Source of the DNA: a virus
Lineage: Duplodnaviria; Caudoviricetes
IMG/VR virus record: IMGVR_UViG_3300032226_000130
Coordinates: 1 to 36,471 of that record
Length of the DNA: 36,471 nt
Reading direction: 5' to 3' (one strand)
This document shows, in pieces, positions 13,401 to 33,889 of the stretch. The notes under the pieces were generated by a model that worked only from the letters and a program-made list of their open reading frames with translations, did no database searches and was not told the origin of the DNA. The stretch's first letter is position 1. Each line of letters begins with the position of its first letter. The translations under genes and the position numbers were made by a program.

Positions 13401-13659
13401 CGATGGAGGCCGCTTACTTCGTGGTCCCGGTGATGGCGTATCTGATTCAATTCCTGCGACAATCGGTGGTAAACAACCAGCTCGATTAGCAGAAGGTGAG
13501 TTTGTTGTACCAGCAAGAATCGTTTCTGAACTAGGTAACGGCTCTACAAATGCAGGCGCTAAGAAGCTTTACGCCATGATGGACCGTGTCCAGAACAAGC
13601 GCCGCAAAACAAAGAACGTTGCGGCTGATACAAAAGCGCACAAAAATTTACCCGCATAA
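10480..13659 (+). CDS. Internal virion (ejection) protein 1
   Basis: 1059 aa; Pro/Gln-rich disorder, Gly/Ala hydrophobic segment, C-terminal AxGG...GPGDGVSDSIPA...LAEGEFVVPA domain; follows the nozzle gene. Confidence 0.6.
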   Translation: MSWTPEYPEWPAPRPQVDYFAQQSENGYGNSYIPSGIASLPIQQPVPGPIYQPIAPEVDYYAQQFGNYFTPTLPAAQPMVEPAPVFDPFNSSSGIIEDVEEPLERFVQDVTEPLPFAPRNTKSDIIEDVEEPFNYAKVTNDRPAPPLPQTDQNTGVFGLPSLEQAQQTQQTQPAQPAQPVGPDPKTVDSLKNQILGQGLTGKWTGSGHGSADANAADMAKIMAGIGITDIKQFGKVPILEEAVAQKGYNGQAAQQDEDGNYFIVTTTGFDYEGNPINSRQSVDPKDLQTLYGSYQPITSNPDEGSYFVPADKSNLVLKDGVTMVKTGETFGNKATGQAVPITYSERQKGDFFGGTFAGKGNTGYGVKFDSQGNPIFYTQGASSNDLANMMKDFGPLGQIAIAAATGGLSLPAQLAANAGIQLLAGGDIKDILKGTALSYLGGQAGNLISGSSGITDLLGKTGTDIAARTARQFVGSGGKADLEQALLGNVLSSGVNSVMGEVPGLDNLSPVDRSLTSNLIAAVATGTPIEQAIQNAIVSKASSEVSNSVAQARNAPSIPDEQPKTYEDLMAGIVPSTPDRPSTGPSNDEILKQIGYEPEPTTVQQEPANIDQLLRSLQPYIENPPVDNLINQAVTDTLGTKNADETATGRETTMDDIDLSSLMGSLDAGPGAVDLSNIDLSNLLAANTPTDNYQFNPDDYKDAFASGELSDLLGDSYNFDPNQYADAFASGDNLMGSGRYESNLNTSQLEKGFNLDDAKAAERERADEYDPTAALPQYGVQDLGISQTMIDEFNKNYQPAGGFGSQWQTVGTNKVMVNDDGTSTILDPTTGQSSYLTPAQTAALIKNGTLNTKSSGYVAATGGTGSRPGGSRPATSTAKKTTKTEGSGGNKANMIMALMAMMAMMNDRGKGSSGSGSVIPALQANRTQLPYSRPSRPGAGGQNYFSPTTYTAKAAEGGLMGLAGGGMSSLGGYSDGGRLLRGPGDGVSDSIPATIGGKQPARLAEGEFVVPARIVSELGNGSTNAGAKKLYAMMDRVQNKRRKTKNVAADTKAHKNLPA

Positions 13660-13668
13660 GGAGCTATT

Positions 13669-15309
13669 ATGGCCGGAGCAGTTTTACCAACAGGATCGAC
13701 AAACACCCAGGGCCTAGCTCCTTGGGCTGGTGATTACATTACCAATTATCTTGGCAAGGCTCAAGCTTTAGCTGAAAAAGGTTATGAGAAATTTCCAGAT
13801 GCACTTACAGCTGGTCCTTCTGATTTACAAAATAAGGCATTTCAAGGTCTTGGATCATTGACTGTTCCCGGAAGTATTGGTCAAGCGGCCACCACGGCTG
13901 GTGACATTGCGACCAAAGCTCAAAACATGGGGTACACACCAACCCAGTTTACAAGCCAGTTTAATGCGCCCGGTGCATACACACCTTCTAGCGGGCCTCA
14001 ATATAACCAACTAACTGCCAATACTGTATCTTCGCAGTTCAATGCTCCAAGCGCTTATCAGGGTGCCACATTTGATAATCAGTTCAAAGCACCAGAACAG
14101 TCTGAAGCTACTAAGTTTCAAAACCAATTCCAAGCTCCAGGTCAGTATCAGAACACAGCGTTTACGTCTGGCACGTTTGGCGGAGAGCAAGCTCAGCAGT
14201 ACATGAACCCGTACTTGCAAGCTTCGCTAAACCCTCAACTGGAAGAAGCTCGCCGTCAAGCACAGATTACCGAGCAACAAAATAAAGCGGCAATGACCCG
14301 TGCTGGTGCTTATGGTGGTGGCCGTAGTGCTATTCTTGCCGCCGAGAACCAACGTAACCTTGCATCTAACCTAGCCAATATCACTGGTAAGGGTTACGAC
14401 ACAGCGTTCCAAAACGCTATGAGTCAGTACAACCAAGACCAAGCTCGTAATATGCAAGCTCAACAAGCTTCTGAGCAGTCTAAACAGTTTGGTGCTGGCC
14501 AGTCTATGACTGCGGCTGACATGATGGCTAGATATGGTATGTCTGCCCAGCAAGCTCAAGAAGCGGCTCGTCAGTTCAATCAACAACAAGCCATGACTGG
14601 TGCTCAGTCTGCGGCTCAGTATGGTCTTGCAGGCCAGCAAGCTACTGAGGCTTCCCGTCAGTTTGGTGCAAACCTTGGATTACAAGCGGCTACGACAGCT
14701 GGTGCGCAGGGTTTACAGGCGGCTTTGGCTAACCAATCTGCTGGTCTTACTGCTGGTCAGGGCAACATCAATGCGGCCATGGAAGCGGCACGTCAGGCTG
14801 AAGCTTCACGCCAGTTCGGTGCTCAGCAGGGCATGACAGCGGCACAGCAAGCGGCTCAGTATGGCCAAGCGGCGCAGGCGGCTTCTGAGCAGTCTAGACA
14901 GTTTGGCGCTCAACAAGGTCTGGCTGGTTTGGACACAGCTCTTCGGGGTGCACAGCTTCAAGGTAACTTGGGAGCTACTCAAAATAGAACCGCCCTTGAT
15001 AATCTCAGTGCTCAGCTGGCCGCAGGAGCTACACAGCGCGGAATTACTGCTGAAGGTATTGCAGCGGATAGAGCTGAGTTTGAAGCAGAACGTCAGCTTC
15101 CATATCAACAAGTTCAGTTCATGCGCGACATGATCTCTGGACTGCCAACTGGATCGGTCACAAATACACCGGCAAACGTTACTGGTGTAGGTGCTTTGCT
15201 TTCTTCATTGGGTGGTGGTGCAGCGGCCGCCTCTGCGTTGGGATATAAAGACGTTGGTGAGTTATTAAAAGCGCTTGGTCTTGATTTAGGACCAAAAGAA
15301 CCTGTTTAA
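13669..15309 (+). CDS. Internal virion (ejection/DNA-transfer) protein 2
   Basis: 546 aa; SD AAGGAG; Gln/Ala-rich helical repeats, YMNPY..AGAYGGGR motif. Confidence 0.65.
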   Translation: MAGAVLPTGSTNTQGLAPWAGDYITNYLGKAQALAEKGYEKFPDALTAGPSDLQNKAFQGLGSLTVPGSIGQAATTAGDIATKAQNMGYTPTQFTSQFNAPGAYTPSSGPQYNQLTANTVSSQFNAPSAYQGATFDNQFKAPEQSEATKFQNQFQAPGQYQNTAFTSGTFGGEQAQQYMNPYLQASLNPQLEEARRQAQITEQQNKAAMTRAGAYGGGRSAILAAENQRNLASNLANITGKGYDTAFQNAMSQYNQDQARNMQAQQASEQSKQFGAGQSMTAADMMARYGMSAQQAQEAARQFNQQQAMTGAQSAAQYGLAGQQATEASRQFGANLGLQAATTAGAQGLQAALANQSAGLTAGQGNINAAMEAARQAEASRQFGAQQGMTAAQQAAQYGQAAQAASEQSRQFGAQQGLAGLDTALRGAQLQGNLGATQNRTALDNLSAQLAAGATQRGITAEGIAADRAEFEAERQLPYQQVQFMRDMISGLPTGSVTNTPANVTGVGALLSSLGGGAAAASALGYKDVGELLKALGLDLGPKEPV

Positions 15310-15320
15310 GAGTAAATAAA

Positions 15321-16877
15321 ATGAACCTCATCCAAATTCAAGAACATCTAAAGGATTTGCCTACACAGGCAATCATGGCGTATGCCAATGGGCAAAACCC
15401 ACAGGTGCCGCCGTACATGGCTTTGGGTGAAATGAACAGACGAAAGAACATGGAGCAACGAGCCGCGCAAGCTCCTAACTCTTCTGTTAAAGAGAAGCTA
15501 GAGGGCGAGCTGGCTCAGCAATTAGCTTTACCGGGCGTTGGTCAGGGCATGAACATGAGGATGAACCCAGAAGGTATGCCTGAACCCATGCCGGCCGTAC
15601 AGCCTCAAATGGCTCCTCAGATGCCTAAGATGCAGAACCCTCCTTTGGCTCAAAAGACGCCTCCCCAGCAGATGTCTCAGCCCGGTAGTATCCCTGCTGG
15701 CGCTCCCGGCATGGCTGATGGTGGACTGGCTACTTTGCCTGTTAATTCTGATATGTTTAACTACGCACCCGGCGGCATTGTTGCATTTGCTGATGAAGAC
15801 AATAACCAGTTGGTCTTGCCTCCAGGTACACCATATAGCTCTGAAGAGTCAGGCACTTATTCTTCTAATGAAGGTGGTGGTAAGACTCAAATGGATTTAG
15901 CTAATGAAATTCTAAAGAAACGTTTGCTTGGTCAAGTTGATCTGCCACAGCCTGTTGATAGAGATGTGGTTAGAGCAGAGGTACTTGCTAAGAGGCCAGA
16001 GCTTGCCGGTATTCTTAACAAGTTACCCGGTGAGGCTTTGGGTAAACTGGCTACAGAGCTTGAGTCACAGAATAAGTCTCAGCGTGATAGATTCCAAGAG
16101 GGAGAAGGCCGGCAAGGTCTTGCCGCTTTGTCTAACGCTTTGATTGCCGCTGGTGAAGCTACCCGTGGCCAGAAGGGCTTTGGCGGCATTGGCGCGGCTT
16201 TTGGTGGCTTTGGTAAGGCATATAACGCATCTACTGAGGCGGCTGAGCAAAGAGCCTCTAAACAGCAAGCCCTTGAACGCGCTCAAACCATTGAGACTAT
16301 GAAGCTCCAGTCAGACATTGAGCAGATGCAACGTGCGTTTGCTGAAGGTGACATTGATAAAGCCATGAAGTTTAAAGAGCAGATTGCTGCCCGTGAGGCT
16401 AAGATTGAAGAGATCAAAGGCACAGCCGCTAAAGACACTATTAGTAACTATATGACTCAACAGCAACGTGATGAGCAAGTGCGTCACAACAAAAAGGTTG
16501 AGGAGTATCAACTGGCACAGCAAAATATTGCCGCTGAACGTGCCAAGTATGAGCGTGAGAACAGGCCTACAGTTGAAGATAAGAACATACTTTCTGTCAT
16601 GTCTCGTTTAAATGCAGACCCAGATTACAGAGCCATGTTAAAGAAACGTGATAACTTCAGTCCGGGCGATCCCGAGTTTGAGGCAATCCAAGACGTTTTA
16701 GACTCGATGAGAGATGCGGCATTTGCAGATTTAAAACTCAAAGCTCCTACAAAGCGTGAAAGATTAAAATCTACAGCGCCACCTGAAGATACACGGTCAT
16801 TTTTAGATAAACTGTCTGGTAAACCGGCCCCGGGTAATTTCCCCGCCTTACCTCCTGGCTTTGTTCCCGTTAAATAA
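15321..16877 (+). CDS. Internal virion (ejection) protein 3
   Basis: 518 aa; MADGGLA/YAPGGIVAF motifs, Gly/Ala amphipathic segment, long coiled coil. Confidence 0.6.
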   Translation: MNLIQIQEHLKDLPTQAIMAYANGQNPQVPPYMALGEMNRRKNMEQRAAQAPNSSVKEKLEGELAQQLALPGVGQGMNMRMNPEGMPEPMPAVQPQMAPQMPKMQNPPLAQKTPPQQMSQPGSIPAGAPGMADGGLATLPVNSDMFNYAPGGIVAFADEDNNQLVLPPGTPYSSEESGTYSSNEGGGKTQMDLANEILKKRLLGQVDLPQPVDRDVVRAEVLAKRPELAGILNKLPGEALGKLATELESQNKSQRDRFQEGEGRQGLAALSNALIAAGEATRGQKGFGGIGAAFGGFGKAYNASTEAAEQRASKQQALERAQTIETMKLQSDIEQMQRAFAEGDIDKAMKFKEQIAAREAKIEEIKGTAAKDTISNYMTQQQRDEQVRHNKKVEEYQLAQQNIAAERAKYERENRPTVEDKNILSVMSRLNADPDYRAMLKKRDNFSPGDPEFEAIQDVLDSMRDAAFADLKLKAPTKRERLKSTAPPEDTRSFLDKLSGKPAPGNFPALPPGFVPVK

Positions 16878-16891
16878 TTTAGGATTTCATT

Positions 16892-19800
16892 ATGCAACGT
16901 GCCGTCAATCCTCAAACTGGGGAGGTGTTGTTCCTTGTTAATAACAAATGGACCGCTCCAGAGCAAACTGCTAAGAACGACAGAGGGGATACGGCATATC
17001 TAGTTGGTAATCAGTGGCAAATTGTAAAGAACGTTCCTCTTCCAGAGCCTACGCTCTCCCCTGAAGAGCAAGTGATGAGCGCCCCAGCTGAGCGTGGTAT
17101 TGCGTCTATAGTTCCACGCCCATCAACAGCTCCAAAACCGCCATCAGAGTTAGCTCCCGGAGAAGAGTTAGGCAAAGGCGCTGGCGCTGGCGTTATTGGT
17201 CTTAAGTCCATGTGGGAGAGCGCTGGCCTGATGAAAGACATTGGTGCCATGAGCACCGTTCAACAGCGCCAAGATCTATTTAACAAGATTGAAACTGGCC
17301 AGATCACAAGTACCGATCAATTGCGTGGCCTTGATGAAACAAGTGGTCAGGCTCGTTCATACCTTATGTCTGATCCAGCTACACGCGAGAAGTTGCGTGA
17401 GCGTAATGTTGGTGAGATCGGCCGCCGTACAGACTTTGTTAAAGCTTCTCTGGCTACGATTGATCAATATCAAAAAGATGCCCTAAAGTACAAAGGCCGT
17501 ACAACAGACTTAACAGATATTGAAGGCGCTAAAGACTTTGCTAACTGGGCGGCCTACAACATAGGCTCTGGTGCTGTTCAGTTAGCTCCTCTCATGATTG
17601 CCGCCGTTACGACTGGTGGTGCTGGCGTTGCCGCGCTTGGTCTTGGTATGGGCACCGGAGAAGCTATAAGCAACCGACTACAGTTCCTTGAAAAGCGGAT
17701 TAAAGATCTGCCTCCAGAACAAAAGGCCGCAGAAGTCATTGACTACATTAAGAAGACTGGTGACACATCACTGGCCGTTGGTGTTGTCAGCGGTGCTTTG
17801 GATGCAGTCCTAGGCCCAGCGGCTACTTTGGCTAAACGTGGATTGGGTGAAGTTGTTAAGGGTGAGACTCGCAAGGAAGCACTCAAGGCCGGCGTTAAAG
17901 AAATTCCCAAAGCAATGGGTCAAGAGTTTATTACTGGTGGAGCTCAAGAAGCTACCCAGCTTGGTGGTGCTTTGGCTGAACGTGAGATTGACGAGTTCTT
18001 TACAAAAGAGAATGCCAAGAAGATCCTCAATGCCGCCGCAGCTGAAGCCATAGCCGGTTCTATTGGTGGTGCCGCTACTACGGGAGCCCGTGTCTATGGT
18101 GCTGATCAAGCCATCAGGGCAAAAGAAAAGCGAGATACAGAGATCCAAGCACTTCAAGGCAGGATGTCTGAGCTTGATGAGCTTCTTAAGACTGTATATT
18201 CACAAGAACCCCCCCCTGCCGCAACAGAACCCGCAGCTCCTCCTGTTGCCCCAGTTGCTCCAGAAGGTGGTATTGCTGGGCTAATGCCAGAAGCCCCTCC
18301 CCCAGCACCGCCAGCTCCTCCCGCCGCGATTGTGGAGGACGAAGAAGCGCCATCCCAAGATATGGAGGCCATGCTCAGAGAAGCACTTGGAGCAACAGAA
18401 TCTGACACTAACACTGTTAGTGTGGGTAAACCCTTAGTTCCTACTGAAACACCCGTGGCTGAGCTTGATCAAGCGCAAGTTACAGCAATGACAGATGAGC
18501 AGTTAAAAGCTCAGATTAACAACATCAACTTGCGAGACAAGGAATATGAGCTTGTAAAGGCTGAGTTAGATAGCCGTCAGCAACCGCCATCTACCAAGCT
18601 AGTTCAAGAGGTTTTGCCAGAGCCTACAGCCAAAGAGCGCCCAAGTACGCCTGTGATTTACAACGCCATCATTGATGGTTATCAAGGTAACGCAGGCAAA
18701 CTGCCAAAAGAAACACTCACTTGGATGACTGATAACGGTCTGATCAAGGGTGGAAGCACGACACCTCTGGGTCAGCGTTTGATGGACACTGTCAAGCAAG
18801 CTGAAGACGCATACAAGAGCTCTCAGGGTGTGGATGTCCTTGAGGCTATGCAGCGCGGTGAGCCAATGCCGATTCGTAAGTCCATGAGTATGGATCAGGT
18901 AGACGAAGTCGTTGATAAGTTCCTTGCGGCCAATAAGCCTAAGATTGCTCCCAAGCCAGCCCCTGCCGCGCCAGCTGTCAATCCTAAAGTGCAGGATCTC
19001 TTGGAGTTGGAGAACCAGAGCAGGGAAAACAGAGGTCAGAAGTTAATGACTTACGCGCAAGCGGAGAAGATGGTCAATGACGATGTTGAGAATAACCTTG
19101 AGTTTGGTGACTTTGATTTTTCTGTAAAGCAGTTAACTGAAGAAGCTAGAAACAGACTGAAGTTTGATTCAGAGATAACAGCCCCATCCACTAGAGTCAA
19201 CATCTCGAAGACCGGAGAGATGTTGCGGGGCAAACCTTTTACGCCTGATGAGTTTGATAAGAAGGCTATTGAGATTTACAAACAGATTAAAGCGGCTAAT
19301 CCTGACGCTGACGTAGATGAACAAATAGCTAACCCCAATAGATTCCATCCTGTTAAGGAAGAAGCAAACAGCAAAGGCATCAAGATTGGTGATTTGGTTT
19401 ACAGAAAAGGCGAGTCAGAGCCTGACATTGTCACTACTGTTTACAACGATAGGGTTAAATTAACTGACAGGAAGACTGGCAATAGTGGCTTTGAAAACAT
19501 TGACCTTGTCAGCAAAGAGCCAATCCCATACGACTATAAGTTTAACTTTGGCTATGGTGACATTGAAGTCAATGTTAATGAGTGGAACAACAACAAAAAC
19601 CAATGGCAGTTCAGTATGTATGGCCCTGGAGCCAGTGATACTGGGTTCCGTTCTGAGCTGGGCATTCAGTTCAAAGGTACGCCCGGAACAAAAGAATTTG
19701 ACAACTTTGTTGAAGCCATTGTTAGCAGAAGCACGGCAGACCGCCCTCAACAGATAGCCAAAGCAAAGAAAGAAGCCGAAAAGAACATGACTCCTGAACA

Positions 19801-22800
19801 GCGCAAACAGCGCAGGGAGCAAGAATCAGCGGCTGATAAAGAACGCCTAGCAAAAGAGTCTGCTGAGAGCGAAGAAAGAACCAAGGCAAGGAATGAGCTG
19901 CTGGGTGAAATTCAGGAGCACATGAAGAAAAACAAGATTGGCATCTACTCGCCAATGCCTTCGCTAAAAACAGCGATGGAAACAATTGAAAAGCTTAAGA
20001 AGGGTAACAAGACTGACCCCCGAGCTGAAGGCTGGATGAAAGGTCAAGGCATCATTTGGACGCCTGAAAAGAATCCGCAGTTCACCCGTATGGGTAAGAG
20101 GTTTGTGCAAGAGGTGTACAAACTTAACCAGAAGTTGACTGAAGAGCAACGTGCTTCTGGCACTGAGGACGCTACTGTACTTAAGGCCGCTGTAGACAAA
20201 GCCAACGCCATCACTGAAAAAGAGCGTAAGAAAGCTATTGCTGACAAACAGAAGGCAATTGAAGCCCAGAACATTGACAAAGCCAAGATAGAGCAAGCTG
20301 ACCAAGACATTGAAAAAGCCTTGGGTGATTTGGCTATGCTGATTACAAAGGGCACACGCCTGAACATGATGCCAGAGGATGAGCAAAAGCTCATGCCTAT
20401 TCTGACCACATTGATGGATGCGTCATTCCGCAAAGGTTACTACAAGTTTAAGGAAGCCGCCCGTTATGTGATGGATCTGATCCGTTCACAGTTGGGTCAT
20501 GACTTTGCTGATGAGATCACTTTGGATCAGCTCCAAGGTGCATACATTGGTATGGCCGGTAGATACCAAGACCAAGGCGCAAGCTCCAAGAAAGAAGTTA
20601 TTGCAATTGAGTCTTTGTCAGAGATTGACGAAGTTGCTGGTGAAATAGAAGTTGGTGAGGTTGATATTAATAACCCATCTGAGCAATTTGAAGTAGCTCA
20701 GAACCTTGCACAATTCTTCATGGAAGATGGCGAGTTTGCCAACATCAATGAAGCTCGCAAGATGATTGCCGATATGACTGGGCAAGACATCAAGCCGGGC
20801 ACTAAAGAATCCAAAATGGCAGATGAAGCCATTGAGGCTGGTGTAGTCATGGCCGCGCGCAACATTGTAGATGCTGGCCGTCAAGACAAACTTACCAGTG
20901 CACAGATCTATGACAAGTTGGTTGATCTCTATGAGCGCCAGCCAAACCTAAGTGGCCGTAGTTCTACTAGTATTGCCCAGCAAGCCTACTCTACCCCTGC
21001 ACCATTGGCTTATGTAGCCTCTGAGCTGGCTGGCATCAATAACAGCACAGTGGTGTACGAGCCTACAGCTGGTAACGGGATGCTGTTGATTGGTGCTACT
21101 GAAGACAACATCATTGCCAATGAGTTAAACAAAGACCGCTATGAGATGCTTTCACGCATCCTAGAAGGCTCTGAGATTGGTAATGAAAACGCGCTTGACT
21201 CTAACGTTAAGGGGGCTGACTTTGATGTCGTGATTGAGAACCCTCCTTTTGGCAAAGCTGGAAACATCAGCGACATTGATCACGCTATTGCAATGCACTC
21301 TCTTGAGGGTATGAAAGATGACGGCCGTGCTGTCTTGATCTTGGGTGGTGTACAGGCCAACACAGAGGAAGGCCGCCGTGAGGGCTATCGCGGTAAGGCT
21401 AAACGTGAGTTCTACTTCCGACTCTATAACCAATACAACGTTGTTGACCACTTTACAGCTGGCGGCAATATGTATGCAAAGCAGGGCACAACGTACCCTG
21501 TAGACGTCATTGTCATTGATGGCGTAGGCAAATCTAAACGTGGTTTACCGGCAGCTGATCTGCCTCAGTTGATCACATCTTACGAACAATTGAAGGAGAA
21601 GCTAAATGATCGCATGGTATCCCGAGGAGATCGTGGCACCGCCGGAACTGACGTCAGTGCTGGTACCGAAGGGCGAGCTGAGCCAGAAGGAGTGGATCGA
21701 GGCGCTGTCGGAGAGGGTAAGCAACCTAGCGGAGAAAGAAGAAGACCCGCTGGAGGCGGCGAACGAGGCGTGTCGGAATCTGAGTCTACCGGAGGTGGAC
21801 AACGCGAACCAGCTGGGGGACGCGCTGGTGAAGTACAACCTAGACCTACTGACGAATCTAAACGTGGTGCAGAAGGAAGACCCGTTTCCAGCGAAGGTAA
21901 GCGAGGAGAAGCCGGCGGCAAGGCAGGCTCTGAAGGACGTAAGCCTAGCGAACTGGGTGGAGTTAGCGTTGTCTCAGGTAAGCGTGTCGAGTCTGGATTA
22001 ACAGAGCGCGGCAAGCAGGAAGAAGAAACAGCCAATCAGGTTTCTTATAAGCCTCACTCACAGGCCACCGCTATTGGTACATTGGTTCCAAAAGCTATGG
22101 CACAGGCTATTGAAGATTCAATTTCCCGTGTTGAATCTGAAGTTGGAAACATTGATGAGTTTGTTGCTGAACAGCTTGACATGGACCCAGAAACCCTGCG
22201 CGAGCAGTTCTCTGCTGAACAGATTGACGCATTGGTTTTGGCTATTCGTAATGCTGAAACTGGCAAGGGCTTCATCATTGGCGATCAGACTGGTATTGGT
22301 AAAGGCCGTGTCGTTGCAGCCATGATTAAGTACGCGCTTAACACTGGCAAGATCCCAATCTTTGTTACTGAAAAGCCTAACTTGTACTCGGACATGATTC
22401 GAGACTTAGACGATATTGGCATGACAGATCAACTTGGCTTAGACACAGCCAAACCCAAGATCTTCATGACCAATAGCAGTGAGTCAGTTCCATACACCTT
22501 GATTCGTACTGTCAAAGGCGAACCAGTTGAAAACAATCTGATGCTCAAGCCAGCCAAGTCTTCTGGGCTTGATGAAGTCATGAAGCAGATGGTTAAGAAT
22601 GACAGTTTAGGTAACTACAAGGTTATCTTTACAACATATAGCCAGCTGCAGAGCGTTAAAGGTAAACCCACAGAGCGTCAAAACTTTATCAAGCACTTCG
22701 GTGCTGGTAACTACATGATCTTTGACGAGAGCCATAACGCTGGTGGTGCTGGTGTTGAGCCTGCTAAAGCTGAGAAAGAAGCCGGCGTCAACATTGGCCA

Positions 22801-25800
22801 AGGTCGTTCTGGTTTTGTGCGTAACTTGGTTAAAGAAGCTGACGGCACATTCTTCTCATCGGCTACATACGCTAAGCGTCCTGATGTGATGGACCTGTAC
22901 TCAAGTACAGATATGAAGTTGGCTGTGGATAACATTACCCAGCTGTCTGACGCGATCAAGGCTGGCGGTATTCCTATGCAACAGACCGTAGCAAATATGC
23001 TGACCCAAGCAGGCCAGTACATTCGCCGCGAGCGTACCTTTGCAGGGGTGTCATACAACACACAGGAAACCAAGGTAGACAAAGATACGGCTGAGAACAT
23101 GGCTACGTCTATGCGTGACATCCTTGCTTTTTCACGCGAAAAGGAAGTTGTTGTTAAGCGCTTGCAGAAATCTTTAGACACTCAAGGAGCCCGTGCTGGT
23201 GCAGTAACCGAGAAGACCACAGTTCAAAGTGCAAACTTTGGCTCAATCATGCACAACTTGATTGACCAGATGCTGTTGTCATTGAAGTCCCAAGACTCTG
23301 TGCGTCATGCTATTGAACGCTTAAAAGCTGGTGAGAAGGTCGTTATGACTGTGTCCAACACCATGGGCTCATTCTTGCAAAGCTATGCAGATGACATGGA
23401 TCTTAAAGTTGGTGATGCTGTTAATTTGTCATTTGCTGATCTGTATATTCGTTACTTAGAAAAGCAGCGGATGGTCAAGATCACAAAGCCGGGCGGCAAG
23501 AAAGAAGATTACCGTCTGACCGATGCAGATTTAGGTGAGAACTTGGCCAGCCGTTACTACGAGATCCTTGATTTCATTCGTGGTGCAGGCTTTGGTTCTG
23601 CCCCTATTTCTCCGATTGACTATATGCACAGCGAGTTGCGTAAGGCTGGATACAAGACTGAAGAGATCACAGGCCGTACAGTTACGCTGAACTATGAGAG
23701 TGGCAAACCTATATTGACCACACGTTCTGCCAACATCAAGCAACGGGTTAACGCTGTTAAAGCGTTTAATGCTGGGGACACTGACGTCATTATCTTGAAC
23801 CAAGCTGGCTCTACTGGTTTGTCGCTCCATGCTTCTAACAAGTTTAAAGACCAGCGCAAGCGTCACATGATCATTGTTCAGGCTGAGAAGAACATTGACA
23901 CCCATATGCAGATGCTTGGCCGTGTGCTTCGTACAGGTCAGGTTGTGAAGCCAGCTTACTCACAGATGATGGCTGACATTCCTGCTGAGATGCGTCCTGC
24001 CGCTGTTTTGCTTAAGAAGATGGCGTCCCTAAGTGCTAATACTACAGCTTCTCGTAAGTCAGCCGTGTCAGCCGAGGGTGCTGTTGACTTCATGAACGAT
24101 TACGGTGGCCAAGTCGCACAGGAATACTTGCGTGATAACCCAGGCATCCATGCAGAATTGGGTGGCAATAAGCTACTTCAAGTTAAGGAAAACACAAACG
24201 AAGCAAGCGAAGAAGATATTCGCAAGCTGACTGGCTACATACCAATCCTGCCAATCAAACAGCAGGAAGAAGTCTATAAAGACCTTATCGAGCGTTACAA
24301 AGATTTGATTGAACGTGAAGACAGCATGGGCTCCAATAAGTTGGAAGCCAAAGCTCAAGACTTGGATGCTCAGACTATTAGCTCTGTTGCGATTACCGAA
24401 GACAAAGGTGAGCCTTCTATCTTTGCCCAGCCTGCTTACATGGAAAAGGTTGATGTCAGACGCACGGTTAGACCTTATTCTAGGCAAGAAGTAAAAGACC
24501 AAGTTGCAGAAGCATTAAATGGTAAATCTGCTGTTGATTACTCTGATGATCTAAAACGTAGCATCAGAGAGCCATTTAAAGATTACTTTGATGAACGTAT
24601 TGCTGATGCAAAAGAGTCTGGTGCAGATGAAGTAAAACTTACAGCAATCAGATCTCAATTAACAGCTGACGCTGAAAAGATCAAATCCATTTTGGATACT
24701 TATCGTTTAGGTACGCCTGTTTCTATTAAGAATGCCAATGGTGTGTTTGTCTATGGTGTTGTAACTGACATCAAACACAAAGGTAAGACCAAGAGCCCAG
24801 TAGCAGGATCAGACTGGAAGATGACGCTGGCGCTGGCTAATGGTGATGCCAAGTCATTACCGTTGACTTTCTCTCAGATTGGCGGATCTTACACTTTGGA
24901 AGAACAGGGTCAGATTCAGTATCTCAATCCAGAGACATTGCAAAACGAACTAATCCCTCTGTATGAGTTGTTTGACCGTGGTGCTACTGTACGCCGTGAG
25001 AAGCGTTGGATGGTGACTGGCAACATCTTGTCTGGTTTTGCAGAAGTCAACAACATGGGTACGATCCTGTCGTACACCAAGAACGATGGTACGACTGGCC
25101 AAGGCATCTTGATGCCACGCACATTTGACTTTGAAAAAGAAAAGAAAAACGCTCCAGTCAAACTCAAAACATACGCTGACGTTAAGCAATTCTTTGATAA
25201 GTTTGGCCGAGGTGCAATCATCTCTACGCCAGACGAAGTATTGCGCATTCGAAGTGAGGGCTATGACAACTTGAAGTTTGTTACTTCTAGCTCCAAGCGC
25301 GAAGGTGGTACGTTCTTCTTAGATACAAACCTAACTGGGATCATTGGCGACTTCTTTAAGACCGGCTCGCTCATGACTGCTCGCAGCTCTGATGAAGCTA
25401 GGAACAGAAAAGCAATTGAGTACATCCTGAATGAACGTCAGGACTCATTGATTGCCGCTTCTAACAAAGAAGAAGCGCGTGAGATGTTCGCGCCTAAAGA
25501 CATCCCGTTGTCCAGCATTAAGTTTAACAACGAGAGGTTGAGCATCAATCCGGCCATGAATATTGCAATGGATCGTGAAGCTTTGATCCGTAAATATCAG
25601 GCAGTGCGTCAGAAGAGCGCGGCCATCTCTGCTAAGTTTGCCAAGGGTGAGGCAGGACTGGATGAGCAAAAGGCTTTGACGTTCCTTAAACAGTCTGCCA
25701 ATGACCTAAAAGAAGACATCAAAGACACCAAGCCAGCAGGCCGTCTTGCTAAGAACTTCTTTGCCAAGGCTACTGCTGACTGGAACAAAGACCTAATCAG

Positions 25801-28800
25801 CGATGACGTTTATGACGTTATCAGAACTTTGCATGACAAGTACCCAGAAGTCTTGGAAGGCCTGCAGTTTTCTATTAAGAAACAGCCAGAAGGTAAGGAC
25901 GTAATTGGAGACTTCTTCCCCTTCCCACGCATTGTGCGTTTGTACAAGGGTACAACTGGTGTAGTTGATCCAGAGGCTATCCGCCATGAGATCGTTCACA
26001 GTCTTGAGCAGATGATGGAAGCCCCAGCCGTGCGAGCTTTGGTTGATGACTGGTCTGATAAGTTGGGTGCGGCCATCAAAGCCGAGAAGTCAGCTGCCGG
26101 CCAGAAGTACTTCCGTAATGTGTTGGAGATGCTTAATAGCCCAAGTTTGGAAACCTATCAAACGGCCATTGATTCCATGCCATCAATGAACTATTACCAG
26201 TATCTGAACCCCTCAGAGTATTGGGCTGTTAACGCTGAGAAGCTGATGGCGCGTAAGCTGGGCACAGGCTGGGACAAGTTTGTCTTGGCGGCCAAGCGTT
26301 TGTTTGAAGGTCTGAAGTTCATGTTTGGTTTTGATAACCGTTACATTGTTCAGAGAACATTCAACGACATCATGAACAGCCGTCAAGAGCGTTTCCATAC
26401 ACGTTCTTTAAATAACTACATCACAAAGGAATCCATCCCCTTGTCCAATATGGTCAAGAACTACAAGGGTGGAGCTGGCGCGTTGGCTACATGGGAATCA
26501 GCAGAAGACACTAGCCTTGCCAAGTTCCAGTACCAGATCGTTGACAAGCAAGTTGATACGCGCATGGTGGTTAAGTCCATCACCGAGCAGATTGGTGACA
26601 TCCGAGATCAGCACGATCCATCTTTGCAGGAAACCCTGTATCACAGTGCTAAATCTAGCAAAATCCAAGACTTCTTAAAAGACAATCTGCGTCCATTTGT
26701 TGAGCAGATGCGTAAGATGGGTGTGGAGTATCGTGACTTTGAGCACTATCTCCATATGCGTCATGCCAAGATTCGCAATCACATTGTGGCCAAGCGTAAC
26801 CCAACCATGCCAGACGGTGGTTCGGGCATCTTTAACCAAGAGGTGGACGATTACTTTGCCGGTAAAGACAATTCAAAGCTAACGCCAGCTGATGAGGCCA
26901 AGTACAAAGAGTTGGCTAAGACAGTAGATAACTGGGTTGAAGAGACTCAAGACTTGCTGATCTCTTATGGACTTGAGAAACCAGAGACTATTGCCGCATG
27001 GCGTGAGAAGCTCCCCTTCTATGTTCCTTTGAAGCGTGATCCAGATGAGCTGGACTACGTGACTCCAGGTTCTGGTTTGGGTCAGGGCTTTGCAACCCGT
27101 GGTAACTTTTCCAAGACTGCAACCGGATCGTACAAAACTGTTGTTGACGTCTTAGCCAACATCGCTCTCCAGCGTGAGGCGGCGATTATCCGTGGTGAGA
27201 AGGCCAAGGTAGGCCGTGCTCTGTATGCGTTGGCCATCCAGAATCCCAATCCTAACTTCTGGAAGCCCGTCAACCCTGACGCTATTCGCAATAAGAAGAA
27301 GCTCAAGGAGGAGATGGCCAGCTTTAACCTGACAGTGGCTGAAGCTGATGCTTTGTTTGCAGAGCCACCTTCTCCACGTATTGATCCAGCTACTGGGTTG
27401 GTGGAGTACAAGGTCAACCCTGCGCTGCGGAACTCACCTAACGTATTTGCCGTGCGTGTCAATGGCGAAGACCGATTCATCTTCTTTAATCCCGGCGAGC
27501 CCCGTGCCAAGCGCATGGCTGAAGCCTTGAAGAACTTGGATGCCAATCAGCTAGAGGGTTATTTAGGTACTGTGGCTGAAGCGACCCGCCTGATCGCGGC
27601 CATGAACACCCAGTACAACCCTGTATTTGGTGCATGGAACTTTGTGCGAGATGTCTTTGGCGGCACCATTAACTTGGCCAGCACAGAGATCAAAGATAAA
27701 AAGATGCAAGTATTGGCTGGCTCTATCCCAGCTCTGCGCGCAATCTTTACTGATCTGCGTGGTATGAAAGAGTCTTACGCTGGCATTGTCAGTGACCCAA
27801 ATCAAAAAGAATGGATTGAGCTGTGGAAACAGTTTAGAGAGATCGGCGGTATCACTGGTTACAGTGAGCAGTTCAGTCGTGCAAAAGACAAGGCATCTAT
27901 TGTTGAGCGTGAGATGGCTCGCTTGGATCGCGGTAATGCACGTAGAAAAGCTGATGCTGTCCTAGACTGGCTGTCTGACTACAACGATGCGATGGAAAAT
28001 GCCGTGCGTCTGTCTGCCTTTAAGGCCGGACTAGACAAAGGCATGACACCCCAACGTGCCGCTTTTTTGGCCAAGAACCTGACTGTTAACTTTAACAAGA
28101 AGGGTCAAGCCACTGCAAATGCCAATGCCTTGTATGCGTTCTTCAATGCTCGCGTCCAAGGCACAACCCGCATGATGGAAGTGCTAGTTCAGAACAAAGA
28201 CGGCAAGTTCACAATGACTGGCGTTGGCAAGAAAATAATTGCTGGCGGTATGTTGCTCGGTACAGTGCAGGCTTTGGCTTTATTGGCGGCAGGCTTTGAT
28301 GGCGATGAGCCACCAGACTTCCTCAAAGATAAGAATTTGATCCTGCCTACCTTTGGTATTGGTGGTGAGAAAAAGTACCTAATCGTCCCGATGCCTTTGG
28401 GCTGGAACTTGTTCCCCAACATTGGCCGTGAGCTGACTGAGTATGTCTTGATTAACTCTGGTCAGATGAAGGGCAGACGCAAGATTACCCAGACAATTAC
28501 CAACATTGCAGCTCAAGTGGCTGATATGTTTAACCCGTTAGGCGCTGGTGGCATTGGTAATATGGTTATGCCAACCATCATTGACCCAGTTTTCAATGTG
28601 CTTGTAACAAACAAAGATGCGTTTGGCCGTCCAATCTCACGGGAAAACCGCGAAACAAATCCGACTCCAGGTTGGGAGCGTAGCCGTGATAACGCTACTA
28701 GCTTGAGTAAAGCTTTGGCTTACGGCATAAATTACTTAACTGGCGGGGGTGAATATGGTATTGGTTTGGTTAGCCCAACAGCTGACCAGCTGGACTACAT

Positions 28801-29236
28801 CGCTCGCGAGTATGCTGGTGGTGTTGGCCGTGAGATCACCAAGGCCGTTCGCTATGTGGCCAATAAGGCTACTGGAGAAGAGATCCCAGCTTACTCAGTA
28901 CCGATTGCCGGCAAGCTGTATGGTGAGCTCGATTCACCTTCTGCTGTGGCTGATAAGTTCTACAAGAACGTCAAGGCCATGGCTGAGCATGAGGGTGCTA
29001 TCAAGCGAATCAAAGAGCGTAAGGGTGATGTAAACGACTATCGCAAGGAAAACAAAGAAGCGACAGTCAGGCTCATTAACCGTGCTAACTACGTTGAGAA
29101 TGAGGTTGCTAGGTACAACCGAGAGATTCGCGCTATGTATAAAAAAGAAGAGCCCGAGAAGAACATCAAAGCTAAAAAAGAAAAGCGTGATGCCCTGATG
29201 AAATCGTATAACGAAGAAGTTAGACGGGCCCAATAA
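16892..29236 (+). CDS. Giant DarB-like polyvalent virion protein: amino-MTase + Strawberry-notch SF2 helicase + zincin metallopeptidase + LPD38-like C-terminus
   Basis: 4114 aa; YSTP (~20985), VYEPTAGNG (~21055), ENPPFG (~21240), GDQTGIGKGR (~22280), FDESH (~22725), SAT (~22860), AGSTGLSLHA (~23805), QMLGRVLRTGQ (~23910), HEIVH..SEYWA (~25985-26227), LYAFFNA..QG/PMPLGW C-terminal region. Confidence 0.85.
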   Translation: MQRAVNPQTGEVLFLVNNKWTAPEQTAKNDRGDTAYLVGNQWQIVKNVPLPEPTLSPEEQVMSAPAERGIASIVPRPSTAPKPPSELAPGEELGKGAGAGVIGLKSMWESAGLMKDIGAMSTVQQRQDLFNKIETGQITSTDQLRGLDETSGQARSYLMSDPATREKLRERNVGEIGRRTDFVKASLATIDQYQKDALKYKGRTTDLTDIEGAKDFANWAAYNIGSGAVQLAPLMIAAVTTGGAGVAALGLGMGTGEAISNRLQFLEKRIKDLPPEQKAAEVIDYIKKTGDTSLAVGVVSGALDAVLGPAATLAKRGLGEVVKGETRKEALKAGVKEIPKAMGQEFITGGAQEATQLGGALAEREIDEFFTKENAKKILNAAAAEAIAGSIGGAATTGARVYGADQAIRAKEKRDTEIQALQGRMSELDELLKTVYSQEPPPAATEPAAPPVAPVAPEGGIAGLMPEAPPPAPPAPPAAIVEDEEAPSQDMEAMLREALGATESDTNTVSVGKPLVPTETPVAELDQAQVTAMTDEQLKAQINNINLRDKEYELVKAELDSRQQPPSTKLVQEVLPEPTAKERPSTPVIYNAIIDGYQGNAGKLPKETLTWMTDNGLIKGGSTTPLGQRLMDTVKQAEDAYKSSQGVDVLEAMQRGEPMPIRKSMSMDQVDEVVDKFLAANKPKIAPKPAPAAPAVNPKVQDLLELENQSRENRGQKLMTYAQAEKMVNDDVENNLEFGDFDFSVKQLTEEARNRLKFDSEITAPSTRVNISKTGEMLRGKPFTPDEFDKKAIEIYKQIKAANPDADVDEQIANPNRFHPVKEEANSKGIKIGDLVYRKGESEPDIVTTVYNDRVKLTDRKTGNSGFENIDLVSKEPIPYDYKFNFGYGDIEVNVNEWNNNKNQWQFSMYGPGASDTGFRSELGIQFKGTPGTKEFDNFVEAIVSRSTADRPQQIAKAKKEAEKNMTPEQRKQRREQESAADKERLAKESAESEERTKARNELLGEIQEHMKKNKIGIYSPMPSLKTAMETIEKLKKGNKTDPRAEGWMKGQGIIWTPEKNPQFTRMGKRFVQEVYKLNQKLTEEQRASGTEDATVLKAAVDKANAITEKERKKAIADKQKAIEAQNIDKAKIEQADQDIEKALGDLAMLITKGTRLNMMPEDEQKLMPILTTLMDASFRKGYYKFKEAARYVMDLIRSQLGHDFADEITLDQLQGAYIGMAGRYQDQGASSKKEVIAIESLSEIDEVAGEIEVGEVDINNPSEQFEVAQNLAQFFMEDGEFANINEARKMIADMTGQDIKPGTKESKMADEAIEAGVVMAARNIVDAGRQDKLTSAQIYDKLVDLYERQPNLSGRSSTSIAQQAYSTPAPLAYVASELAGINNSTVVYEPTAGNGMLLIGATEDNIIANELNKDRYEMLSRILEGSEIGNENALDSNVKGADFDVVIENPPFGKAGNISDIDHAIAMHSLEGMKDDGRAVLILGGVQANTEEGRREGYRGKAKREFYFRLYNQYNVVDHFTAGGNMYAKQGTTYPVDVIVIDGVGKSKRGLPAADLPQLITSYEQLKEKLNDRMVSRGDRGTAGTDVSAGTEGRAEPEGVDRGAVGEGKQPSGERRRPAGGGERGVSESESTGGGQREPAGGRAGEVQPRPTDESKRGAEGRPVSSEGKRGEAGGKAGSEGRKPSELGGVSVVSGKRVESGLTERGKQEEETANQVSYKPHSQATAIGTLVPKAMAQAIEDSISRVESEVGNIDEFVAEQLDMDPETLREQFSAEQIDALVLAIRNAETGKGFIIGDQTGIGKGRVVAAMIKYALNTGKIPIFVTEKPNLYSDMIRDLDDIGMTDQLGLDTAKPKIFMTNSSESVPYTLIRTVKGEPVENNLMLKPAKSSGLDEVMKQMVKNDSLGNYKVIFTTYSQLQSVKGKPTERQNFIKHFGAGNYMIFDESHNAGGAGVEPAKAEKEAGVNIGQGRSGFVRNLVKEADGTFFSSATYAKRPDVMDLYSSTDMKLAVDNITQLSDAIKAGGIPMQQTVANMLTQAGQYIRRERTFAGVSYNTQETKVDKDTAENMATSMRDILAFSREKEVVVKRLQKSLDTQGARAGAVTEKTTVQSANFGSIMHNLIDQMLLSLKSQDSVRHAIERLKAGEKVVMTVSNTMGSFLQSYADDMDLKVGDAVNLSFADLYIRYLEKQRMVKITKPGGKKEDYRLTDADLGENLASRYYEILDFIRGAGFGSAPISPIDYMHSELRKAGYKTEEITGRTVTLNYESGKPILTTRSANIKQRVNAVKAFNAGDTDVIILNQAGSTGLSLHASNKFKDQRKRHMIIVQAEKNIDTHMQMLGRVLRTGQVVKPAYSQMMADIPAEMRPAAVLLKKMASLSANTTASRKSAVSAEGAVDFMNDYGGQVAQEYLRDNPGIHAELGGNKLLQVKENTNEASEEDIRKLTGYIPILPIKQQEEVYKDLIERYKDLIEREDSMGSNKLEAKAQDLDAQTISSVAITEDKGEPSIFAQPAYMEKVDVRRTVRPYSRQEVKDQVAEALNGKSAVDYSDDLKRSIREPFKDYFDERIADAKESGADEVKLTAIRSQLTADAEKIKSILDTYRLGTPVSIKNANGVFVYGVVTDIKHKGKTKSPVAGSDWKMTLALANGDAKSLPLTFSQIGGSYTLEEQGQIQYLNPETLQNELIPLYELFDRGATVRREKRWMVTGNILSGFAEVNNMGTILSYTKNDGTTGQGILMPRTFDFEKEKKNAPVKLKTYADVKQFFDKFGRGAIISTPDEVLRIRSEGYDNLKFVTSSSKREGGTFFLDTNLTGIIGDFFKTGSLMTARSSDEARNRKAIEYILNERQDSLIAASNKEEAREMFAPKDIPLSSIKFNNERLSINPAMNIAMDREALIRKYQAVRQKSAAISAKFAKGEAGLDEQKALTFLKQSANDLKEDIKDTKPAGRLAKNFFAKATADWNKDLISDDVYDVIRTLHDKYPEVLEGLQFSIKKQPEGKDVIGDFFPFPRIVRLYKGTTGVVDPEAIRHEIVHSLEQMMEAPAVRALVDDWSDKLGAAIKAEKSAAGQKYFRNVLEMLNSPSLETYQTAIDSMPSMNYYQYLNPSEYWAVNAEKLMARKLGTGWDKFVLAAKRLFEGLKFMFGFDNRYIVQRTFNDIMNSRQERFHTRSLNNYITKESIPLSNMVKNYKGGAGALATWESAEDTSLAKFQYQIVDKQVDTRMVVKSITEQIGDIRDQHDPSLQETLYHSAKSSKIQDFLKDNLRPFVEQMRKMGVEYRDFEHYLHMRHAKIRNHIVAKRNPTMPDGGSGIFNQEVDDYFAGKDNSKLTPADEAKYKELAKTVDNWVEETQDLLISYGLEKPETIAAWREKLPFYVPLKRDPDELDYVTPGSGLGQGFATRGNFSKTATGSYKTVVDVLANIALQREAAIIRGEKAKVGRALYALAIQNPNPNFWKPVNPDAIRNKKKLKEEMASFNLTVAEADALFAEPPSPRIDPATGLVEYKVNPALRNSPNVFAVRVNGEDRFIFFNPGEPRAKRMAEALKNLDANQLEGYLGTVAEATRLIAAMNTQYNPVFGAWNFVRDVFGGTINLASTEIKDKKMQVLAGSIPALRAIFTDLRGMKESYAGIVSDPNQKEWIELWKQFREIGGITGYSEQFSRAKDKASIVEREMARLDRGNARRKADAVLDWLSDYNDAMENAVRLSAFKAGLDKGMTPQRAAFLAKNLTVNFNKKGQATANANALYAFFNARVQGTTRMMEVLVQNKDGKFTMTGVGKKIIAGGMLLGTVQALALLAAGFDGDEPPDFLKDKNLILPTFGIGGEKKYLIVPMPLGWNLFPNIGRELTEYVLINSGQMKGRRKITQTITNIAAQVADMFNPLGAGGIGNMVMPTIIDPVFNVLVTNKDAFGRPISRENRETNPTPGWERSRDNATSLSKALAYGINYLTGGGEYGIGLVSPTADQLDYIAREYAGGVGREITKAVRYVANKATGEEIPAYSVPIAGKLYGELDSPSAVADKFYKNVKAMAEHEGAIKRIKERKGDVNDYRKENKEATVRLINRANYVENEVARYNREIRAMYKKEEPEKNIKAKKEKRDALMKSYNEEVRRAQ
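18405..18423. promoter_or_regulatory. Perfect palindrome ACACTAACA-C-TGTTAGTGT inside the giant gene
   Basis: 9-bp arms; 18403-18420 is identical to 34494-34511. Confidence 0.45.
21606..22001 (+). CDS. Nested overlapping gene (+1 frame inside the giant ORF), acidic helical 131-aa protein
   Basis: SD AAGGAG at 21593-98, 7 nt before ATG; protein-like composition; the host frame here becomes a G/R/E linker rich in GGA/CGA/AGA codons. Confidence 0.7.
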   Translation: MIAWYPEEIVAPPELTSVLVPKGELSQKEWIEALSERVSNLAEKEEDPLEAANEACRNLSLPEVDNANQLGDALVKYNLDLLTNLNVVQKEDPFPAKVSEEKPAARQALKDVSLANWVELALSQVSVSSLD

Positions 29237-33033: not shown

Positions 33034-33557
33034 TTGTTTTCCAAATAGTTAATGAAGTCAATCAGTGCCCAGCCGCTAACCATGGTCTTCATCATGATCT
33101 GATTGGTTTTAGTGGACATTCTTCCTTCAACCTCAAAGGTAGAGAGCCGGCCTTCTGCAACGTGGCGGTTTAGCTCGTTGCTTGTTATGTTCAAAATTTG
33201 TCTAACATCATTGAGCTTGTATGCCAATTGGTGCTCTACATACCTTTGAACCAACTTAAACTTCTCTGCCATTGCAAGCTGGGTAATCCTCTTTTGCTCT
33301 TTCTCTTCCTTTTCAATCTCGGCCACGGTCTTACGCGAGGCTATGTTGAACTTGGGATTCTCTGATTTGATTGCCTTTCTCTCTGCGGCCAGCGCTTCTT
33401 CGCGTGTTGGAAAGTGCTCAATCGTTACGTTTGTGATGCCATAAAACCAACCTGAGTGATCCTTATGCTGGCTCAAGCGGTTAAACGTGCTTAGAGATAT
33501 GCCAACATAGAGCAAGTTATTATCCTTGTCAAAATGTCTGTAGAGCTGGGTGGTCAT
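33030..33557 (-). CDS. GIY-YIG nuclease with C-terminal HTH-like domain
   Basis: LYRHF..LLYVGIS..RL.QH..E..AI..ENPKFN; C-terminal YKLNDVRQILNITSNELNRHVAEGRL. Confidence 0.75.
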   Translation of the reverse strand: MTTQLYRHFDKDNNLLYVGISLSTFNRLSQHKDHSGWFYGITNVTIEHFPTREEALAAERKAIKSENPKFNIASRKTVAEIEKEEKEQKRITQLAMAEKFKLVQRYVEHQLAYKLNDVRQILNITSNELNRHVAEGRLSTFEVEGRMSTKTNQIMMKTMVSGWALIDFINYLENK

Positions 33558-33889
33558 TTTGGTAACGGCCTTTTAAGTTCAAATCCAAATATAGCCAGCT
33601 GCTCTTTCAGTTGTTTAAGTGAAACGTGAGAGAAGTTTGGAATTCTCATCATGTCTCTTTCAGTTCTTTGAATTAATTCACGTACTGTGGTTATGTTTTC
33701 GGCTATAAAAACATTCCTTATTCTTCTTGAAACACCCAGTCGGTCAACAGGAAGATCCGGGCCCAAGATTTTGTGACCAAGTCTTTCTGCCGTATCGCTA
33801 GGCAGACTACAAATCCAACAGTCGTTGTACAGCTGCACAAAACAAATTGTGATGTCTTCCACCTTAAACGAGAACTCTCTTCTTTGCAT
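33554..33889 (-). CDS. RNA polymerase alpha-subunit CTD-like protein
   Basis: PVDRLGVSRRIRN..AENI.TV.EL.QRTE.D.MRIPNF...SL aligns by eye to the RpoA CTD ([40 protein letters not shown]). Confidence 0.8.
   Translation of the reverse strand: MQRREFSFKVEDITICFVQLYNDCWICSLPSDTAERLGHKILGPDLPVDRLGVSRRIRNVFIAENITTVRELIQRTERDMMRIPNFSHVSLKQLKEQLAIFGFELKRPLPK

Follow-up and report, generated by a model that had tools for sequence, protein, structure and literature searches.

Conservation confirms a widespread gene embedded out of frame in the methyltransferase-helicase linker of giant phage proteins and plasmid enzymes

The stretch of DNA analysed here, IMG/VR record IMGVR_UViG_3300032226_000130 (termed the window), comprises 36,471 bases of a partial phage genome of the Caudoviricetes, estimated to be 55% complete. 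It encodes a giant polyvalent protein of 4114 residues (16892..29236, + strand), in which an adenine methyltransferase is connected by a linker to a helicase of the SNF2 type. The DNA of this linker contains a second gene, fully embedded in the +1 frame (21606..22001, + strand), which encodes an acidic protein of 131 residues with a predicted small α/β fold and without a family or fold match. A first-pass annotation had proposed this gene from the letters of the window, and its comparison with related loci confirms, at the level of sequence, that it is a real and widespread embedded gene of which both frames are maintained. The signals described at the outset were all recovered: a Shine-Dalgarno (SD) site, AAGGAG, at 21593..21598 (+), is followed by a 7-nt spacer, an ATG at 21606, 131 codons and a TAA stop at 21999-22001, all in the +1 frame relative to the giant gene. 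The SD duplex energy is -8.8 for the nested gene, compared with -4.0 for the start of the giant gene itself.

The composition of both frames agrees with the earlier description of the overlap. The nested product has 24 aspartate and glutamate against 11 lysine and arginine residues, a net of 13 acidic residues in 131 that is moderate rather than extreme, and contains no histidine. Over the same interval the host frame is of low complexity (32 Gly, 17 Arg, 17 Glu, 14 Ser and 8 Pro among 133 residues) and its codon usage shifts, with GGA serving for 14 of 32 glycines as compared with 23 of 295 elsewhere in the giant gene, and CGA plus AGA for 10 of 17 arginines as compared with 36 of 210. Thymine is avoided at third positions of the nested codons, where it accounts for 8%. 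The nested open reading frame (ORF) is the longest +1 stop-to-stop stretch of the giant gene, the runner-up reaching 107 codons. Its length alone is no proof of a gene, because host linkers rewritten with codons drawn at random from the usage of the giant gene kept the +1 frame open in 20.5% of 20,000 trials; it is the conservation of the nested ORF that goes beyond chance. When the nested protein was instead re-encoded with ordinary codon usage, the host frame acquired a mean of 12 stops and was open in 0 of 20,000 trials, and both frames are therefore being kept.

A sequence search with the nested product returned 69 database proteins with 52-98% identity, 64 of which are 129-133 residues long, while a profile search with the nested protein gave 106 clusters at 50% identity. 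In a close set of 43 viral loci, picked via nested-frame patterns, 42 have the ATG and a length of 129-134 codons, and their host frame runs open for over 1700 codons; the 43rd ends at a contig edge. The ratio of non-synonymous to synonymous substitution (dN/dS), pooled over pairs of 35 distinct loci that are not independent of each other, was 0.30-0.46 in the nested frame; for the same bases read in the host frame it was 1.2-1.6, in keeping with the proposed dual-coding signature. The host value above 1 is expected from the overlap and does not imply positive selection. Variability is highest at the third position of nested codons (0.39, versus 0.30 and 0.22 at the others), in contrast to the flanks, where the third position of host codons varies most. 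Residues W4, P6, L34, R37 and W117 are retained in at least 90% of 100 diverse rows, and AlphaFold2 modelled the nested protein with a predicted local distance difference test score (pLDDT) of 88.6 and a predicted template modelling score of 0.82. The RNA runs contained only short contigs of relatives (5-12% of words) and were uninformative about expression, and a scan for promoters and terminators gave a result at chance level.

The loci of an unbiased survey were reached via the helicase, taking the top 80 from each of two match lists, viral (222) and genomic (442), and adding two annotated phages. These 162 loci, of which 9 were short of upstream DNA and 153 were scored, are redundant; the distinct junctions number 97. 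Methyltransferase and helicase are fused in 147 of the 153 scored loci and split or broken in 6. A +1 ORF of at least 80 codons is located at the methyltransferase end of 115 of the 147 fused genes, and 111 of these 115 match the family profiles; an iterated profile joined 93 of the 115 candidates and no reversed decoy. The nested start lies 5-6 codons past the end of the methyltransferase in 85 of the 97 distinct junctions, and an SD of -4 kcal/mol or stronger was found in 92 of the 97 as compared with 171 of 1453 control +1 ATGs (12%), the distant junctions alone giving 44 of 49. This SD is kept even though the host residues encoded over it vary among junctions. The inner frame is unlikely to be reached mainly by a +1 frameshift from the methyltransferase, because the SD spacing is standard and 45 of the 97 junctions have an in-frame stop immediately before the ATG.

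One clade (support 90) of a 77-row helicase tree (FastTree, midpoint root) carries the nested gene in all of its 63 rows and spans Pseudomonadota, Cyanobacteriota, Thermodesulfobacteriota, Verrucomicrobiota and others. Shorter nested variants of 90-105 residues retain only the helical core and match the long form with a probability of 94% and an E-value of 1.5e-7. The nested product is net acidic in 111 of 112 loci. The gene also extends to plasmids, among which 695 records contained a match and 7 loci were inspected. It is present in four of these seven, including pAQ6 of Picosynechococcus PCC 7002, where it lies within SYNPCC7002_RS15125 at L218:6698-7204; a tblastn search of plasmids with the query nested protein alone returned nothing, and the plasmid copies were reached through the host gene. 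The cyanobacterial plasmid host enzymes that contain it are roughly 2000 residues long and have neighbours that are not virion genes. In the Gloeobacter plasmid pGMOR1 (L219:5713-11652) the host frame is open throughout, yet the RefSeq annotation includes the nested protein (WP_230844304.1) and places the helicase start downstream of it, so that the in-frame methyltransferase is omitted. The prediction that gene callers would miss the nested gene consequently holds for pAQ6, where it is unannotated, and fails for the Gloeobacter plasmid.

The linker displays further variation. Bacteroidota linkers without the nested gene (L186, L201, L203, L206, L210 and L213) sometimes contain in-frame folded inserts of 90-250 residues, which by eye resemble MutS-I, and the linker site is an insertion hotspot. 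In 11 other loci (L123, L124, L127, L133, L140, L141, L150, L152, L154, L176 and L214) an extra in-frame segment of 130-200 residues lies between the nested gene and the helicase and looks helical in the cases read. The cultured phage BS-TP4, which sits near the Bacteroidota branch of the helicase tree, has an acidic ORF at the same place that was not accepted as a relative, as its homology was not significant (E-values of 0.069 and 0.033) and it has no SD; the passages of PMC12694917 consulted on this phage do not mention the gene. No profile match was found between the parts of the six non-fused loci and of L223 that would represent a three-gene ancestor of methyltransferase, small gene and helicase. 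Two of the six, L143 and L197, seem to be frameshifted and not truly split. In loci with separate methyltransferase and helicase genes (L174, L180, L196 and L198), the proteins often have at their end a short, similar helix enriched in E, A, K, R and L, possibly a shared targeting tag.

Copies of the nested domain also exist outside the overlap, which does not sustain the earlier description of the gene as genetically inseparable from its enzyme. Among the 106 cluster representatives, 27 are at least 200 residues long, although some may be gene-caller extensions. Eleven long fusion proteins have a common conserved C-terminal part of ~200 residues (25-45% identity), three long proteins have a common N-terminal part, and single cases carry T5orf172 or ankyrin domains. 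In a fusion family of ~330 residues (L217:1613-2683, P0093, P0097, P0101, P0105, P0117, P0121, P0127, P0131 and P0141-P0143) the nested domain is N-terminal and is followed by an unclassified domain of ~200 residues, which had no match in Pfam, PADLOC or Atlas where searched. This family was absent from the viral contigs searched and occurred once in metagenome contigs. The L217 fusion was seen in DNA: its former host frame contains 16 stops, thymine occupies 44% of third positions, and no methyltransferase or helicase is apparent among the ORFs of its 5-kb contig. A free copy, G341:C1:488781-489149 (L231:9782-10150), was recovered from 401 related genomes with an E-value of 3e-5 and then 7e-9. 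It lies behind an HNH gene in an element that also contains integrase, Toprim/DUF3987 and YafQ-type genes and is inserted beside a tmRNA gene, with no methyltransferase or helicase within 19.9 kb; its former host frame remains free of stops, suggestive of a recent escape. The same protein occurs in viral record L232, and the gene upstream in the G341 element weakly resembles the N-terminal part of fusion P0076 (E-value of 0.009). In a single database protein, P0068, the end of the methyltransferase continues in frame into most of the nested protein, probably through an assembly or deletion artefact. The escaped copies represent two DNA contexts (L217 and G341), too few for a claim of a role in defence.

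Searches with the nested protein revealed no match in Pfam, PADLOC or the ESM Atlas, and PHROGs gave a single match for 100 family members (E-value of 0.009). The best E-value against PDB sequences was 0.22, Foldseek of the nested model reached 1.2 in the PDB and 0.94 in BFVD, and VIA-align gave a best Z of 3.2 (root mean square deviation of 4.1 over 82 residues). Several winged-helix rows in VIA-align, at Z 2-3, were not counted. These null fold searches do not make the nested fold a new one.

The host of the nested gene is the final gene of a virion-structure operon. Its product contains no cysteine, matches Pfam AAA_34, Helicase_C_4 and LPD38, and is a DarB-like methyltransferase-helicase dyad that is likely ejected from the virion; as in such dyads, an NPPF adenine methyltransferase is fused to a SWI2/SNF2-related ATPase. 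An N-terminal helical domain and the methyltransferase domain extend over 20681..21604 (+; residues 1264-1571), with EPTAGNG and NPPF motifs, PHROG DNA methyltransferase matches over residues 1360-1487, a PADLOC MTase_II match and high pLDDT in the model. At the position N-terminal to the methyltransferase where LPD36 is found there was no Pfam LPD36 match, but a four-helix domain is predicted. The nested gene begins where the catalytic domain ends, and the host-frame linker inside its span (21614..21946, +; residues 1575-1685) is predicted to be disordered, with a pLDDT below 50 (model residues 312-422). Downstream lie the first lobe of the Strawberry-notch SNF2-type ATPase (AAA_34; 22199..23092, +; PF13872, E-value of 2.7e-22), with GDQTGIGKGR and DESH motifs and fold matches to SWI2/SNF2 remodelers (best E-value of 3.5e-12), its C-terminal lobe (Helicase_C_4; 23663..24334, +; PF13871, E-value of 7.2e-23) and the polyvalent-protein domain LPD38 (28304..28906, +; PF18857, E-value of 2e-33). 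In the host model both enzyme parts fold confidently without the nested protein.

A hypervariable segment of the methyltransferase follows the NPPF motif (21161..21400, +; residues about 1424-1503) and is a candidate specificity region. It is 39-65% identical in pairs that are 79-100% alike across most of the linker and helicase, which suggests that it is swapped among otherwise near-identical phages in a cassette-like switching of methylation specificity. The exchange is independent of the nested gene, the protein of which stays about 89-99% identical.

Other features of the window were noted in passing. A +1 ORF after the nested gene (22074-22325; 83 residues from a TTG, inside a 107-codon open stretch) and an antisense ORF of 151 residues over the linker (21580-22035, - strand) both look like shadows. 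Four consecutive large ORFs are free of cysteine, three of 1059, 546 and 518 residues (10480-16877) that had no Pfam or PHROG match and the giant gene of 4114 residues (16892-29236), and probably encode ejected proteins, like the ejection operon of N4-like phages. A small gene with an RNA polymerase alpha C-terminal domain (33554-33889, - strand; PF03118, E-value of 2e-12) adjoins GIY-YIG, PD-(D/E)XK and ERF genes.

As for function, the favoured reading, to which we assign a probability of roughly 0.45, is that the nested protein is a partner of the enzyme that remains in the cytoplasm of the producing cell, where it restrains or chaperones the methyltransferase-SNF2 module, and that does not accompany it on transfer. 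The linker DNA would encode two proteins, the spacer of the giant enzyme and the acidic 131-residue protein, translated from the same mRNA, the latter probably in excess because its SD is stronger than that of the giant gene. The protein would act on the methyltransferase-SNF2 module, since the nested gene travels with this module in phage giants and in plasmid enzymes; the plasmid enzymes indicate that it goes with the enzyme module and not with capsids. They also remove the earlier suggestion that the enzyme is held inactive until packaging as a general role. As an acidic protein it may inhibit or chaperone the enzyme by covering a basic surface that binds DNA. It would remain cytoplasmic when the giant, which has no cysteine, is packaged and later ejected, and the activity of the enzyme would then begin in the next cell and be confined to the incoming DNA. 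Because of the nesting, the enzyme gene could be neither moved nor expressed without its brake. Methylation of injected DNA has been proposed for the DarB-like dyad (PMC5512222). Related host giants contain 3 cysteines in 105,843 residues, with none in 29 of 32, while the nested protein has 1-3 cysteines in 32 of 32; PMC11445570 describes the loss of cysteine as characteristic of ejected phage proteins, and the contrast hints that the nested protein is not ejected. Where linkers without the nested gene were counted, 26 of 26 were net acidic in the host frame, consistent with an acidic function that these linkers supply in cis.

Several observations weigh against a restraining partner. The parallel with the acidic linkers is weak because acidic in-frame linkers are common in general. 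The nested gene is lacking in 32 of the 147 fused genes, most of them from Bacteroidota and also including an Acinetobacter phage, and P1 darB likewise shows no matching ORF inside it; the expectation that similar linkers hide comparable genes thus holds for the 115 fused homologs and not for P1 DarB. These cases and the six non-fused loci indicate that the enzyme type does not always need a partner. In five genomes without the nested gene, which are incomplete, no profile match was found elsewhere. The plasmid host enzymes are not cysteine-free, having 3-13 cysteines. The divergence of the nested protein tracks both enzyme parts, leaving the domain ambiguous (Spearman rho in the close set of 0.78 for the methyltransferase and 0.61 for the helicase; overall, 0.57 and 0.63, respectively), and mutual-information covariation over 57 paired rows (effective number of sequences, Neff, 45) showed no enrichment for any host domain. 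Finally, the free and fused copies without a methyltransferase or helicase nearby indicate that the target may be something else.

That target could lie in the host cell. An independent effector directed, for example, at a restriction or defence enzyme and nested only for co-expression and co-transfer would account for the persistence of the domain in the 11-protein fusion family, in L217 with its degraded host frame and in the free copy, and for its near-constant acidity. It is a doubtful alternative, as the same site is kept across phyla whose defence enzymes differ, the cysteines of the nested protein hint at non-ejection, and the phage copies belong to a late structural operon, whereas anti-defence proteins are needed early or inside the virion. 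The coincidence of the nested start with the end of the catalytic domain would instead suit an essential second methyltransferase subunit, a structural or specificity element supplied in trans in the manner of the M.EcoHK31I beta chain, which is encoded in another frame of the alpha gene and required for activity (PMC2836561). This is unlikely: the methyltransferase has its own hypervariable segment, which is swapped while the nested protein stays nearly constant, disfavouring a specificity subunit; in the model its domain folds confidently alone; homologs without the nested gene keep a recognisable methyltransferase; and an acidic surface is ill-suited to DNA recognition.

Co-translation from the same mRNA, the late operon context and the strong SD could also be explained by an adaptor that guides the giant protein into the capsid or to the transfer machinery, in the way that P1 Ulx may help to load DarB. 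Ulx has no match to the family profile, and with plasmid enzymes among non-virion neighbours and short variants reduced to the helical core such a role appears quite improbable. A purely translational device, in which ribosomes on the inner frame tune the output of the giant gene and the peptide is irrelevant, would explain the conservation of a very strong internal SD; it is hard to reconcile with selection at the amino-acid level, the five retained residues, a confident predicted fold and the survival of copies outside the overlap, and is very unlikely. A similarly low probability attaches to a selfish homing insert, of the kind represented by the out-of-frame HNH gene within a phage methylase gene in ShiLan (PMC11855218), or to a chance open frame that is no gene, as the G/R-rich linker leaves the +1 frame open in 20% of random re-encodings. 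No nuclease family match was found, presence in the 63-row clade is unbroken rather than patchy, and SD, start position, length and residues are all conserved, so that selection, clade and start signals have largely refuted this explanation already.

The nested gene defines an unannotated family without a recognised fold that is kept fully embedded across several phyla; nested genes are seldom conserved so deeply. A literature search, covering mostly open-access main texts without supplements, found no description of it. A stretch read as a low-complexity linker in a giant phage or plasmid protein can be the imprint of a second gene, and deleting, recoding or cloning such DarB-like genes alters two proteins together. 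The family offers a handle on how methylase-helicase anti-restriction enzymes spare the DNA of their producer, and the copy on pAQ6 of the model cyanobacterium PCC 7002 makes it practical to test. A broader and rather improbable proposal is that of a widespread enzyme with a built-in antidote: mobile elements would conceal the inhibitor of a DNA-modifying motor in its own linker, and bacteria and satellite-like elements would repeatedly have lifted it out as a novel form of counter-counter-defence. If true, the enzyme would stay inactive in the donor and become active only once ejected or transferred, and the lifted copies, free or as in-frame fusions, would disarm or sense an incoming anti-restriction enzyme.

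Full out-of-frame embedding of small genes is seen in Rz1 within Rz of lambda, where Rz1 is a functional partner of its host gene, and in comS within srfAB; the nested gene is embedded in the same way, while the proteins and functions are unrelated. DNA-mimic inhibitors of the Ocr/ArdA type are small and strongly acidic, with carboxylates spaced like DNA phosphates. The nested protein is likewise small and acidic, only moderately so, and fold searches with its model gave no significant row. M.EcoHK31I, a C5 methyltransferase whose beta chain supplies the missing motif IX (PMC2836561), shares with the present system a second protein encoded wholly in another reading frame of a DNA methyltransferase gene. 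Its inner product works with its host enzyme, by analogy with which a partner role may be envisaged here. The host in the present case is, in contrast, an NPPF-type adenine methyltransferase fused to an SNF2 ATPase rather than a C5-cytosine enzyme lacking motif IX, and the overlap covers the interdomain linker just after the catalytic domain. ShiLan (PMC11855218) resembles the nested gene in that an out-of-frame gene lies in a phage methylase gene whose host frame remains open as a loop or linker. It differs in being a patchily distributed homing nuclease without an SD, whereas the nested gene has a strong SD, no HNH or nuclease match and an unbroken inheritance through the multi-phylum clade. 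The nested gene therefore belongs to neither the M.EcoHK31I nor the ShiLan type, departing from each on a defining feature. The host protein resembles the DarB-like dyads (PMC5512222) in the order of adenine methyltransferase and SF2/SNF2 ATPase, in LPD38 and in its virion operon, and departs from the usual dyad in its rarer Strawberry-notch ATPase and in a nested gene with no match in P1 darB; the words "overlap" and "frameshift" do not occur in the main text of that paper. Nested out-of-frame genes in methyltransferase genes were already known, and what appears to be new is this embedded family.

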